This document shows, piece by piece, positions 193-47,674 of a stretch of 64,000 nt of DNA (positions within the stretch are counted from its first letter, which is position 1; each line of letters opens with the position of its first letter). This DNA comes from Gemmatimonadota bacterium (GTDB lineage Bacteria > Gemmatimonadota > Gemmatimonadetes > Palauibacterales > Palauibacteraceae). The notes beneath the pieces were generated by a model that saw only the letters and a program-made list of their open reading frames with translations, was not told where the DNA came from and made no database searches. The stretch is taken from the NCBI GenBank assembly GCA_046758745.1, contig JBHIAV010000008.1, positions 1-64,000 on the forward strand. The letters are read 5' to 3'. A program made the translations under genes and the position numbers.

Positions 193-1590
<1,398 letters not shown>

Positions 1591-1620
1591 CCCCTCATCC
1601 CGCGGCCCGACGCCAGCGCG

Positions 1621-2223
1621 TCACGGATCCCTGCTCGCCGAGTCGGTCTCCCCCCACGGCCGGATGGAGTCTTCCGGGTCGACCCCCAGGCCGTCCGCCA
1701 CCCGCGTGATGTAGTTGAAGTAGGCGATCACCTGGACGGCGTCGTGGATTTCCCGGTCGTCGAGGCCGTGCGCGCGCAGAGCGTCCAGATCGGCCCGGGA
1801 CATCTCGCGCTGGCGATGGGTCAGCTTGGCGGCGAACTCGCCGAGCGCCCTGTCGACCGGCTGGAGCGGGGCGCGGCGCCAGTCGCGGGCCACGGCATGC
1901 ACGAAGGCGTCGGCCTCATCCGGATCTTCGAACGTGCCCTGGACCTCTTCCCGGAGGTCGTGCGCGTGCGCCTGCGTTCAGTAGTGGCACCCGAGCTCGG
2001 CCGACACGACGGTGGCGAGCAGCTCGCGCTGCGCCCGGGAGAGGGGCGAGCTCCCCTTCATAAGCGAGACATAGAAGCGCATGCTCGTGTCGAGCGCGCG
2101 CGGGTTCAGGCTCATGATGCGCACGATGTTCCACACGCGCCCGGCCCGCGCGATCGCTTGATCGTACAGCTTCTTGAGCAGACCGGTGGCCTTGTCGTTC
2201 GGGACCTGCTCGATCCAGGGCAT
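1621..2223 (-). CDS. AhpD/carboxymuconolactone-decarboxylase-like peroxidase, probable selenoprotein (UGA=Sec at codon 82, 1978-1980)
   Basis: ORFs 1978-2262 and 1621-1902 share one frame. Read-through gives ...RELLATVVSAELGCHY-U-TQAH..., matching the AhpD-like ExxxxxxSxxxxCxxCxxxH pattern. The C-terminal half (DDREIHDAVQVIAYFNYITRVADGLG) is typical of the family. 200 aa from the ATG at 2223. Confidence 0.85.
1929..1980 (-). promoter_or_regulatory. Candidate bacterial SECIS element directly 3' of the UGA
   Basis: The mRNA reads UGA-acgcaggcgcacgcgcac-GACCUC-cgggaa-GAGGUC-cagggca-CGUUCG. There is a perfect 6-bp upper stem (1942-1959) with a G-containing loop starting 25 nt after the UGA. UGAACG can pair with CGUUCG as a lower stem. 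Confidence 0.65.
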
Positions 2224-2236
2224 TTTGCTTTTCCGC

Positions 2237-2701
2237 CTAATTCTCCGCGCCTTCCGCCGCACCGAGGCGCCCTCTCACCGGTGCCACGTCGTACGTCGTG
2301 ACCTCGTAGCGGTTCCCCCACGGATCACAGAAGTAGACCGAGAACGCCTCGCCGTGATCGCGGGGAGGGAGCTCGCGGAGCTCCTCCCCGTGCTCGCCGA
2401 ACACGGGGTTGTGCCCGATGTGCTCGAGGAAACGCAGGAACCCCTCGGCGTCCACCCGGAACGCGACCAGGTGGTGACCCGCTGTCTGGCGCGCCCCGCG
2501 GGGCTTGCCCACGAAGAGCGCCAGCTTGGTTCGGCCTTCGTCGCTCGAGACCATGAGGGGCCCGCGCTCGGCCCAGTGCGCGAAGCGTGGCACGATCTGG
2601 AGGCCGAGCGTCCTTTCGCACCAGCGCGCGGCCTCGTATTGGTCGGGAACGAACAGCTCGACGTGATCGATCCCCTGGACCTTGAAGGTGGGCCTCGGCA
2701 T
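2237..2701 (-). CDS. VOC/glyoxalase-bleomycin resistance family protein
   Basis: IDHVELFV, HHLVAFRV and SVYFCDPWGNRYE are VOC metal-site patterns. GGAGG SD before the ATG at 2701. Confidence 0.8.
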   Translation of the reverse strand: MPRPTFKVQGIDHVELFVPDQYEAARWCERTLGLQIVPRFAHWAERGPLMVSSDEGRTKLALFVGKPRGARQTAGHHLVAFRVDAEGFLRFLEHIGHNPVFGEHGEELRELPPRDHGEAFSVYFCDPWGNRYEVTTYDVAPVRGRLGAAEGAEN

Positions 2702-2753
2702 CGTCCCTCCGTCGGCTGGTCGACTTCCACGTGCGGCGGGCCGGAGACCCAAT

Positions 2754-3431
2754 ATGGGCGAGAGACCTTTCGACGTCATCACCTTCGACTGCTACGGGAC
2801 GCTGGTCGACTGGGGAGCGGGGATCGGCTCCGCGTTCATCGAAGCGGCCCGTGCGGACGGCGTGCTCCTCGAGCGCGGGCCGGTGCTGGAGGCGTACATG
2901 GAGGTGGAGCCGGCCGTGGAGGCCGAGGCGTACCGGAGCTACCGCCAGGTCCTCGCCGAGACGGCGCGGCGAGTGGTGGTCCGGCTCGGCTGGCGGCTTC
3001 GGCCGGAGCGCGCCTCGTTCCTGGCCGAGAGTCTGCCGGGGTGGCCTGTGTTCCCCGACACGAACCCCGGGCTCGAGCGCCTGGCGGCGGCCGGCTATCG
3101 TCTTGGAATCCTGTCGAACGTGGATGAGGATCTGCTGGACGCCACCCGGCGGAGCCTCCCGGTCGCTTTCGACCCGGACCTCATCGTGACGGCGCAGTCC
3201 GTCGGCTCTTACAAGCCGGCGCGCGGCCACTTCGAGGAAGCACGCGGTCGCATCGGGCTTTCCCGCTGGCTGCACGCCGCGCAGAGCTGGTTCCACGACG
3301 TCGTGCCGGCGCTCGAGCTCGCCATCCCGGTGGCGTGGGTGAACCGGAAGGGGGAGGCCCGGCCGGAGGGCGACGGTCGCCCGGACTTCGAGGTGGCCAC
3401 CCTGAGCGCGCTGGCGGGACGGCTCACGTAG
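2754..3431 (+). CDS. HAD-superfamily hydrolase (haloacid dehalogenase type II-like)
   Basis: Motifs FDCYGTLVDW, LSNVD, SYKP and HAAQSWFHD. Confidence 0.85.
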   Translation: MGERPFDVITFDCYGTLVDWGAGIGSAFIEAARADGVLLERGPVLEAYMEVEPAVEAEAYRSYRQVLAETARRVVVRLGWRLRPERASFLAESLPGWPVFPDTNPGLERLAAAGYRLGILSNVDEDLLDATRRSLPVAFDPDLIVTAQSVGSYKPARGHFEEARGRIGLSRWLHAAQSWFHDVVPALELAIPVAWVNRKGEARPEGDGRPDFEVATLSALAGRLT

Positions 3432-3506
3432 GGGGCACCGGTCCGGGTGGTCGTACTGGAGGCTGGCTGGACCGGCTGGCGGGCGTCGGACCGTATGGAC
3501 CCGGCC

Positions 3507-4436
3507 CTACTCGCCGTCCAGCTCTTCTGGGGTGGGGAGGAGGCGGTTCACCGACCACTCGGCGAGCAGGTATACCACCGGCCGATCGGCCCGCCGGACG
3601 AGGTAGTTGGATCCCTCCTCCTCCTTTACGAAGAGCAGCGATGCCAGCGGGGCCGCCGCCGGTGCGGAGGCGCCCGCCTCGTCGTACGCCTCCAAGACCG
3701 CTTCGGGGGCGTCGAAGTCCGCCCGCACGGCTACCGAATCGGGCGGAAAGCGCATGGCGGTGAGGCGCGTGAGGCCGCCGAGAAGGCTTCGGACCCGAGA
3801 GGAGTCTGCGGCTTCGCCGTCCAGCACCCACACGCTGTCGGGCCGGCTCAGGACGAGCGCCTCGGCGCCGCGGCGAATCACCACCTCGCGCACCAGCGAG
3901 GTGTCGAGCGCGGCGATCACCCGGTCTCGCCACGAGTCCGCATCACGGGTGAGAAGCTGCCCGCCGTTCCCCGGTAGTAGATACACCTCCGGCGCGTCCG
4001 GCGAGCGAACGTAGCGCCCGCCCCGGCCGCTGTTGCCGATGAGGATGGAGAGGGCCGGGGGATCCGCGCCGCCGAACGCGACGAGGTGCCCGGCCTCCTC
4101 GGTCACGCCGAGGCGCGGGTGGTTGGCCGGGCTGCGGGAGACCAGCTCGAGGGCTGTCGCCGTGTCGAGGGCCGCGATCAGGCTACGGACCTCCCCGGTG
4201 TCGGCCGGATAACCGTTCACCCGCCACGCGTCGCCCACCCGCTCCAGCCGTATCGAATCACTCCCACCCGGCTTCCGCACGCGGATGAGCGACGTCCCGC
4301 TGTCCACCGCCCCGCCAACGTCGATGCCGGCGCTCTGGATCCGGCCGTCTCTCCCTCCGAGCACTCGGCTCAGGGCGTAGGCGGCCAGCAGCGCGGCCAG
4401 CAGCCCCAGGATGATCCGGACGTTCCTCGGACTCAC
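3507..4436 (-). CDS. DUF4340 domain protein (N-terminal membrane anchor, duplicated domain)
   Basis: N-terminal TM segment followed by two W.(V/L)(N/D)G..AD...V..L repeats. It is the last gene of a Gld-like ABC operon, the usual DUF4340 context. Confidence 0.7.
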   Translation of the reverse strand: MSPRNVRIILGLLAALLAAYALSRVLGGRDGRIQSAGIDVGGAVDSGTSLIRVRKPGGSDSIRLERVGDAWRVNGYPADTGEVRSLIAALDTATALELVSRSPANHPRLGVTEEAGHLVAFGGADPPALSILIGNSGRGGRYVRSPDAPEVYLLPGNGGQLLTRDADSWRDRVIAALDTSLVREVVIRRGAEALVLSRPDSVWVLDGEAADSSRVRSLLGGLTRLTAMRFPPDSVAVRADFDAPEAVLEAYDEAGASAPAAAPLASLLFVKEEEGSNYLVRRADRPVVYLLAEWSVNRLLPTPEELDGE

Positions 4437-47129: not shown

Positions 47130-47674
47130 CCGCCAGCCGCCTCGCGCCCGCCCCACCCCGCGAGAAGCGAGTCCACCCTGGCGCTCACGATCTCCCACGT
47201 CAGCGGTCCCACCTGCTTGTATGCCACCCGTCCCTCCCGGTCGAGGAAGAACGTCTCGGGCACACCGTACACCCCGTAGTCGATGGCCGTGCGTGTTGCC
47301 GGGTCGAGGACGCTGGTCCACCCTCCGCCGAGCTGCTCGAGGAACCGGCGCGCGTTCACACGGCTGTCCTGATAAACCACCCCGACGATCCGCACGTCCC
47401 GCCCGGCGTACTCCTCCTCGGCCCGGCGAAGGACATCGTGCTCGCCCCGGCAGGGAAGGCACCAGGAGGCCCAGAAGTTGAGCACCACCACCTGGCCGCG
47501 CAGCTCCTCGAGGGCGAGCGAGTCGCCGTCCAGCGTCTCGAGGTGAAACGCCGGCGCAGCCTCGCCGATGAGGGGCGTGGGCAGCACGAAGGTGTCCCGC
47601 GTGAGCCCGAACGCGAGCAGCGCCAGGAAGGGGAGCGCCAGGAGAGGCAGCAGCCAGCGAACACCCCTCCTCAT
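47126..47674 (-). CDS. ccmG: Thiol-disulfide oxidoreductase CcmG/TlpA
   Basis: NFWASWCLPCRGEH and YGVPETF, within the ccm operon. Confidence 0.88.
   Translation of the reverse strand: MRRGVRWLLPLLALPFLALLAFGLTRDTFVLPTPLIGEAAPAFHLETLDGDSLALEELRGQVVVLNFWASWCLPCRGEHDVLRRAEEEYAGRDVRIVGVVYQDSRVNARRFLEQLGGGWTSVLDPATRTAIDYGVYGVPETFFLDREGRVAYKQVGPLTWEIVSARVDSLLAGWGGREAAGG

Follow-up and report, generated by a model that had tools for sequence, protein, structure and literature searches.

Does the TGA that separates two minus-strand open reading frames (ORFs) in the genome of a Gemmatimonadota bacterium end one gene, break another, or encode selenocysteine (Sec) within a single intact gene? The two ORFs lie on contig JBHIAV010000008.1 of GenBank assembly GCA_046758745.1, in a stretch of 64,000 nucleotides (positions 1 to 64,000 of the contig) that was analysed as a whole and is referred to here as the window. 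A prediction made from the letters alone (the sequence-only reading) had proposed that both belong to one selenoprotein related to the alkylhydroperoxidase-associated protein AhpD. Our analysis indicates that the locus is very probably one gene, encoding an AhpD-like oxidoreductase of about 22 kDa from the NCBIfam family TIGR01926, with the active site C79-x-x-U82, in which UGA is read as Sec.

A single frame with a conserved internal UGA

Translation of 2223..1621 on the minus strand gives a single frame of 200 codons (2223..1624) followed by a terminal TGA at 1623-1621. The frame starts with ATG at 2223-2221 and is free of TAA and TAG up to the terminal codon. Its sole internal TGA is codon 82 (1980-1978), and there are no further stops or frameshifts. 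The read-through product consists of 200 residues and contains SAELG-C79-H-Y-U82-T-Q-A-H86. In an ORF list made with translation table 11, the same frame yields 1978..2262, which begins at a GTG upstream of the ATG, and 1621..1902, which begins at GTG 1902-1900. Since the latter GTG is codon 108, codons 83-107 form 25 stop-free codons between the UGA and the GTG. The description in the sequence-only reading of two ORFs in one frame, parted only by TGA 1978-1980, was therefore right in all coordinates and counts, and the coding-like character that it ascribed to the 25 codons is borne out by protein conservation across them in 20 of 20 related loci. Other TGA codons flanked by open frames and next to Cys, Ser or Thr were also sought across the window in a rough scan that is no substitute for a proper selenoproteome search; of its 86 hits, 1978-1980 alone is in a frame that looks coding.

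Of 61 genomes searched in six frames, namely this genome with 36 from its family and 24 from its order, 47 gave matches. The 30 best rows all contain an in-frame TGA, counted whatever its position from row 21 onward, and the first row without one is row 31, at 41% identity. When the 20 best loci of the related genomes were translated and aligned, the TGA fell in the identical column in every case, within C-[HFR]-Y-U, and the protein was conserved on both sides of it, including the 25 codons that the split annotation drops. Additionally, when 185,579 species genomes were scanned with sequence patterns, 108 relatives were confirmed; the 80 best of them were compared and the other 28 left out. 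These 80 are 59-77% identical and all have TGA at the position of codon 82. The scan was not skewed towards TGA, because Cys was used at that position when one of its six patterns was back-translated. The combined set of 100 orthologous loci (20 from related genomes and 80 from named metagenome-assembled genomes) carries eight phylum-level labels. According to their titles, the 80 are of Chloroflexota type (35), Gemmatimonadota type (31), Acidobacteriota (5), Actinomycetota (4), Planctomycetota (2), Bacteroidota (1), KSB1 (1) and Eiseniibacteriota (1). Judged from these alignments, such a pattern of TGA conservation is far beyond chance.

The codon coincides with the position of the second Cys in CxxC-xxx-H, as the sequence-only reading had placed it. 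U82 aligns with Cys in the PDB entries 6k40, 2oyo and 2pfx, where C-x-Y-C-xxx-H lies opposite C79..U82..H86, and with Cys in a paralogue from the same genome (P0004, on contig C3; C-D-Y-C, 30% identity in a 12-sequence alignment). The protein thus has the CxxU form, with Sec in place of the second Cys of CxxC. A second Sec paralogue of this genome, on contig C54, reads C-E-Y-U, and the nearest true Cys form in the protein collection, among the matches listed, is P0019 with 56% identity. The interchange of Cys and UGA at position 82, which the sequence-only reading had named as a check, is accordingly found in both forms, with conservation on each side.

In a sample of 151 genomes, consisting of this genome and 150 from its phylum, a TIGR01926 match at E <= 1e-15 was present in 71. 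The sample strongly favours the Sec form: 81 of the 87 rows above the TIGR01926 cut-off have one TGA and 6 have none, any in-frame position being counted. Several genomes of the sample contain three to four TGA-bearing TIGR01926 genes.

The TGA is neither unique to this assembly nor unsupported. Besides the 100 loci, two additional samples of the same study yielded contigs that cover it without a differing letter (X2 record 4, covering 1951-2071, and X3 record 10, covering 1942-2184), while the cover of run X4 stops at 1979. Metagenome unitigs of three runs break at 1942-1980 of the window, where run X2 shows an increase in summed depth from about 9 to 22-25; this pattern fits a UGA and hairpin stretch that is identical letter for letter among several organisms in those samples. 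The sequencing runs listed for the window DNA include none of RNA.

The hairpin and proposed selenocysteine decoding

Past the UGA, and within the coding sequence, the transcript can form a hairpin with a 5' arm at 1960-1954, the loop CGGGAA at 1953-1948 and a 3' arm at 1947-1941. It occupies 18-37 nt downstream of the UGA, with the loop beginning at +25. The consensus fold of the nine closest orthologues has a 7-bp stem (C-GACCUC / GAGGUC-G) and a 6-nt loop. In an alignment of 89 sequences, 83 of them distinct, 97.6% of 581 cells are paired, compared with 22-46% when the partner columns are slid, and within the loop (C-G-K-G-N-N) G2 and G4 are invariant in 89/89 sequences. Pair 33-46 is C:G in 71 sequences, U:A in 10 and broken in 2, so that a compensatory change from C:G to U:A is present in 10 distinct sequences. 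The observed covariation score was reached by none of 500 column shuffles, a count that is no probability for related sequences. A stem-loop just past the UGA with a small, G-containing apical loop is how PMC1088965 describes the bacterial selenocysteine insertion sequence (SECIS), and the window hairpin has this arrangement.

As far as sequence comparison can tell, the freezing of synonymous sites is the strongest argument for the hairpin. Among the nine orthologues, codons of invariant residues are represented by a single codon in 6/6 cases within the hairpin versus 4/69 elsewhere in the gene (Fisher p = 1e-6), and across 87 distinct coding sequences codon entropy averages 0.36 for hairpin codons versus 1.27 elsewhere (Mann-Whitney p = 2.5e-4); the values of both tests are inflated by kinship of the sequences. 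Leu90 is written with one codon in 87/87 distinct coding sequences, whereas other Leu columns use 5-6 codons. On this comparative evidence, the hairpin has the behaviour expected of an RNA element under selection.

A comparison of the 72 nt around the UGA suggests that two subfamilies form different SECIS hairpins on homologous codons. In the subfamily of the window gene (loci L019-L027), GACCUC pairs with a downstream GAGGUC and the loop lies 25 nt after the UGA. A distant subfamily (C-F-Y-U-T-E-A-H-G-E-D-L-R; L028-L038) pairs the same L-R codons upstream, CUCCGU with ACGGAG, in a hairpin that begins 11 nt after the UGA and has its loop at 18 nt.

The contig to which the window belongs, C8, is one of 130 that make up a genome of 3.08 Mb. 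The sequence-only reading had held that the organism decodes Sec and had suggested a search for the genes involved; profile searches of the genome found all of them, each above its curated or gathering cut-off. The genes selA (523 bits against a cut-off of 268) and selB (359.5 bits against 242) are both without internal stops, and selD is present with 354 bits against 125. The tRNA-Sec scores 82 bits in Rfam RF01852 and is assigned by ARAGORN as tRNA-SeC with the anticodon tca. The selD gene is itself a selenoprotein gene, with an in-frame TGA in its conserved GAG-U-ACK site (C11:70024-70941, plus strand).

Other TGA-bearing genes were observed in the same genome. The second AhpD/CMD-like gene (C54:807-1316, minus strand) has its in-frame TGA at 584-586 of locus L120, in C-E-Y-U-T-R-A-H, followed after about 15 nt by a 7-bp hairpin with the loop GGC; it scores 66.8 bits in TIGR01926, under the cut-off. 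Of the ten matches to the AhpC-TSA (peroxiredoxin) family that lie elsewhere in the genome, two have a single in-frame TGA (C3:16493-16891 and C2:46383-46754, both minus strand) and are, the position of the TGA within the gene aside, candidate peroxiredoxin-type selenoproteins. An AhpC-TSA family gene without internal stops is located in the window at 47219-47569 (minus strand), about 45 kb from the AhpD-like gene.

Family, active site and competing explanations

The full-length protein scores 133.1 bits in TIGR01926 ('peroxidase-related enzyme'; curated cut-off 81.8), with residues 2-185 aligned to positions 1-177 of the 178-position profile. The six-frame match in the genome, with 1 TGA inside, scores 125.2 bits and is also above the cut-off. 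The Pfam CMD domain (PF02627) is matched with E = 6e-13 and 49 bits against 23. Scores for canonical AhpD (TIGR00777, 20.6 bits against 191.95) and for NF041238, AhpD_rel_CFYUT (78.6 bits against 175), fall below the respective cut-offs, and the protein is a member of neither family. Nor is it a gamma-carboxymuconolactone decarboxylase (gamma-CMD): it has a complete C-x-x-U motif, and gamma-CMD members are described in PMC3141380 as being without the Cys-x-x-Cys motif.

None of the residues E67, C79, Y81, U82 and H86 varies across the 12 aligned sequences, both paralogues included. Their spacing is identical to that of the proton relays given in PMC3141380 for PA0269 (Glu36/Cys48/Tyr50/Cys51/His55) and for Mycobacterium tuberculosis AhpD (Glu118/Cys130/His132/Cys133/His137). 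The AlphaFold2 model is all helical (pLDDT 92.0, pTM 0.87), and helices 63-76 and 80-97 hold the relay residues; this predicted structure has the CMD/AhpD fold with its two-helix Glu, Cys-x-x-Cys, His motif. The top Foldseek match is a Deinococcus radiodurans protein (6K40, chain 6k40_A; E = 1.3e-11, TM-score 0.81/0.88, root mean square deviation 2.0, 40% identity), followed by other 'peroxidase-related' structural-genomics proteins, so that the top hits are all AhpD-like.

These features suggest the following mechanism. The G-containing apical loop of the hairpin would recruit SelB with Sec-tRNA(Sec), supplied by the SelA, SelD and tRNA-Sec of the genome itself, and Sec would be inserted at codon 82. 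The terminal TGA at 1623-1621, which is without such a hairpin, would end translation. In the protein, the selenolate of U82 would substitute for the second Cys of the AhpD CxxC, the Cys that makes the attack in M. tuberculosis AhpD, and would be activated by the E67/Y81/H86 relay. U82 may then attack an oxidised substrate, either a hydroperoxide or an oxidised Cys of a peroxiredoxin-type partner; a selenenyl-sulfide would form as C79 resolves the intermediate, to be reduced in turn by a dithiol reductant of the cell. The decoding half of this scheme draws on the evidence above. The chemical half, including substrate, reductant and the order of the steps, is drawn from homology, as are the terms 'peroxidase' and 'cytosolic' that the sequence-only reading had applied to the protein.

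Three other explanations concern the codon itself. If the UGA mainly terminated translation, the locus would produce an N-terminal fragment of 81 residues and perhaps, from a start of its own, a C-terminal protein of 93 residues. In favour are the separate database entries for the two halves, the GTG at 1902 and the generally incomplete efficiency of Sec insertion; however, the 25 codons from the UGA to this GTG are strongly conserved as protein (A-H-x-x-L-R) in 20/20 loci and include the invariant active-site His86, the modelled fold requires both halves as one domain (pLDDT 92), and the GTG aligns with Val in most orthologues and with I, L, M or A in the rest, and is thus not kept as a start. 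Termination is therefore very unlikely. Even less probable is a normal Cys-type gene in which the TGA arose by nonsense mutation, making it a pseudogene, or through faulty sequencing or assembly. A bare stop codon in a metagenome-assembled genome of 130 contigs might suggest as much, but TGA occupies the same codon in 100/100 orthologous loci from many assemblies, the frame has no other stop or frameshift, the contigs of the two other samples agree and the hairpin is conserved; a pseudogene or assembly error is excluded by the conservation of the TGA together with the agreeing contigs. It is just as improbable that TGA is an ordinary sense codon for Trp or Gly (NCBI codes 4 or 25), although database entries of orthologues show W (9 entries) or G (P0009) at the Sec position. 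Of the 38 long ORFs with high GC3 in the window, 25 end in TGA, as does the AhpD-like gene, and 13 in TAG. The selA and selB matches have no internal TGA, the G+C content of the window is 70%, a dedicated tRNA-Sec and SelB are present, and the solved homologues have Cys at position 82, never Trp. A general sense reading under these codes is excluded, because TGA is the usual terminator and selA and selB are without internal stops.

The remaining rival accepts a real selenoprotein that is neither a peroxidase nor an AhpC-reducing adaptor, and assigns it another selenol/thiol redox reaction, for which general disulfide reduction, electrophile or metalloid detoxification and reductive dehalogenation, as in the CMD-fold protein Bmp8, are candidates. 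We regard such a role as possible, though on balance doubtful. It is a real rival because the same fold supports other chemistry, as the debrominase Bmp8 (TM-score 0.69) exemplifies. Moreover, the family is named merely 'peroxidase-related', with no assigned function, the peroxidase activity of PA0269 is weak according to PMC3141380, no peroxiredoxin or reductase gene is conserved next to the AhpD-like gene in the 100 loci, and the window DNA is present in hydrothermal-vent metagenome runs. Against it stand the invariance of the full AhpD relay (E-x11-C-x-Y-U-x3-H), the 15% identity to Bmp8, the ten AhpC-TSA family genes of the genome, which could act as partners in trans, and the fact that the closest solved and genetically tested relative (6K40) comes from an organism whose AhpD-like mutant is sensitive to H2O2.

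Several observations weigh against a UGA-decoded, AhpD-like enzyme. For its chemistry, these are the absence of a conserved ahpC or reductase neighbour, the weak activity of PA0269 and the other redox chemistry of the same fold, all noted above, together with the mere 40% identity of the nearest characterised relative; both selenium insertion and enzymatic activity are, for this protein and its close orthologues, inferred rather than directly demonstrated. For the hairpin, the outermost stem pair of the window copy is C.C, which leaves 6 bp (1959-1954 with 1947-1942). Double changes occur in only 2 of the 7 stem pairs, a count reached by 209/500 shuffles, most stem pairs are invariable, and the sequences are related rather than independent. 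Because the hairpin coincides with conserved residues (H-D-L-R-E-E-V), part of its conservation is at the protein level. When the stretch past the UGA is folded as a single sequence, the hairpin appears in the minimum free energy structure, but with an energy not better than that of shuffled sequences (z = -0.16 and -0.25), and it is because of this unremarkable energy that the comparative evidence was relied on. An Rfam scan of 1600-2300 on both strands (E <= 10) gave no match, which says little, bacterial SECIS elements being short. Finally, the genome is 87% complete, and read support for the TGA consists of contigs only, from one study.

The conservation across loci also suggests a broader, tentative idea. 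The clade of the window gene (C-x-Y-U-T-Q-A-H-A-H-D-L-R, with an 8-residue insertion) might be obligately selenium dependent and might move between phyla with a near letter-perfect 20-nt SECIS module, as the UGA in 100/100 orthologues under eight phylum-level labels, the different hairpin of the sister subfamily and the 81 Sec forms among 87 rows could indicate. If so, the family would be a natural system for the reinvention of SECIS elements within coding sequence and for the question of why Cys cannot replace Sec.

The features of the locus are listed in Table 1. The stop codon of the upstream VOC/glyoxalase ORF (TAG 2239-2237) lies 13 nt before the ATG. This gap is the sole basis for the co-transcription with the VOC gene that the sequence-only reading had proposed; the spacing stands, but a conserved link to VOC does not. 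Homologues of the VOC, fumarase and HAD genes were sought in 20 loci and found solely at the locus of the window; the other 19 were without them. When the 1,529 flanking ORFs of the 100 loci were clustered all against all, the largest cluster spanned only 9 loci, and VOC adjacency is absent from the 15 largest clusters of conserved neighbours. A promoter and terminator scan of 1400-3600 found no sigma-70-like site and two weak terminator-like sites compared with 0.6 expected, and is uninformative on co-transcription.

Table 1. Positions of the AhpD-like gene, its elements and its neighbour in the window
Feature	Position	Strand	Evidence
Complete AhpD-like / 'peroxidase-related enzyme' selenoprotein gene	1621..2223	-	Translation, TIGR01926, PF02627, AlphaFold2 model, Foldseek
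Sec codon UGA, codon 82, second position of CxxU	1978..1980	-	Same-column TGA in 20/20 and 80/80 loci; Cys in homologues
SECIS-like hairpin	1941..1960	-	Consensus fold, pairing, frozen synonymous sites
Active-site two-helix segment with proton-relay residues	1966..2025	-	Invariance, published relay spacing, model
Relay codons	E67 2025-2023; C79 1989-1987; Y81 1983-1981; U82 1980-1978; H86 1968-1966	-	
VOC/glyoxalase-family ORF (context only)	2237..2782	-	Pfam PF00903, E = 4.5e-8

Annotation and comparison with known systems

In the protein collection searched, the exact 81-residue and 93-residue halves are stored as separate entries (sources NCBI and Logan), so the gene was indeed split by gene callers, as had been predicted. 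Near-full-length relatives show what becomes of the Sec position elsewhere. Fifteen of them (P0006-P0020, from 120 listed of 161 matches) were read: W stands at this position in 9 (P0006-8, 10-12, 14, 15 and 18), G in 1 (P0009), R in 1 (P0017) and Cys in 2, one of these as T-x-x-C, and the region is missing in 2. Numerous other entries comprise only a C-terminal portion of about 110 residues, beginning directly past the UGA. The entry with Arg, P0017, is 55% identical and reads C-H-Y-R-T-L-A-H. To our knowledge, no standard code reads TGA as Arg, and this residue may represent a true CGA variant or an error. Mis-annotation of selenoproteins of this kind is frequent, according to the BSepDB paper (PMC13326102).

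The result corrects the annotation of this genome, in which two 'hypothetical' fragments become one redox enzyme, and indicates that the organism uses selenium; further candidates are SelD, the second AhpD-like gene and the two peroxiredoxin-family hits with TGA. Additionally, the wrong stored forms (split, with TGA as Trp or Gly, or with the region skipped) distort family statistics and the models trained on them. The gene is a real, mis-annotated selenoprotein gene and an ordinary member of a well-catalogued family. Its description as hidden applies to the gene calls in the collections searched; it does not apply to the selenoprotein field, where the family has long been listed.

AhpD-like selenoproteins had been reported before, as the sequence-only reading had stated. 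The Sargasso Sea study introduced 'AhpD-like protein, COG2128, CxxU' as a new selenoprotein family with 27 sequences (PMC1088965), and the family has been listed since 2005. Later sources report an AhpD-like selenoprotein in two sequenced bacteria in 2006 (PMC1794560), place the family fourth in number among prokaryotic selenoprotein families in the Global Ocean Sampling (GOS) data, with 299 Sec versus 902 Cys forms (PMC2398784), list it under TIGR01926 with CxxU in a 2026 review (PMC13188914) and make it browsable in BSepDB (PMC13326102). The finding is therefore correct and, because the family has long been listed and has the curated model TIGR01926, unsurprising; it opens no new question, the AhpD-like CxxU proteins having been on record as a family since 2005. 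A literature search on Gemmatimonad selenoproteins and selenocysteine found none about the selenoproteome of that phylum, judged by title and start of abstract. Modest leads for specialists are the Sec-only clade over many phyla, the preference for Sec in the phylum sample and the subfamily-specific SECIS hairpins.

D. radiodurans 6K40 ranks first both in sequence (E = 1.4e-26) and in structure, and has the same C-x-Y-C/U-xxx-H site; it differs in having Cys at the second position and neither UGA nor SECIS. According to PMC8945050, the AhpD-like mutant of D. radiodurans is sensitive to H2O2 and its complementation requires CxxC; we infer that 6K40 is the protein of that mutant study. PA0269, which is also AhpD-like, has weak H2O2-reducing activity (PMC3141380). 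M. tuberculosis AhpD shares the relay spacing and has His132 where the window protein has Tyr81. According to the same source, its motif is C-terminal, in a topology unlike that of the window protein, and its gene is under the same promoter as ahpC, whereas the window gene has no such conserved neighbour.

Two other proteins are related more loosely. NF041238 describes a related AhpD-type domain with C-x-Y-U-T, and its match spans residues 3-185 of the window protein; only positions 152-337 of the 357-position model are matched, corresponding to the C-terminal domain of a longer protein. The Bmp8 debrominase (PDB 6OHI) has the CMD/AhpD helical fold in common with the window protein, at the distance in sequence given above. 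The closest system is the AhpD-like CxxU family ('AhpD-like 1' of GOS), from which the window protein shows no essential difference: both share the TIGR01926 score, Sec at the second position of the motif and a SECIS element with G in its loop. Within this family, the window gene belongs to a subclade that carries an 8-residue insertion after the active-site helix and is Sec-only in the loci examined (100/100).

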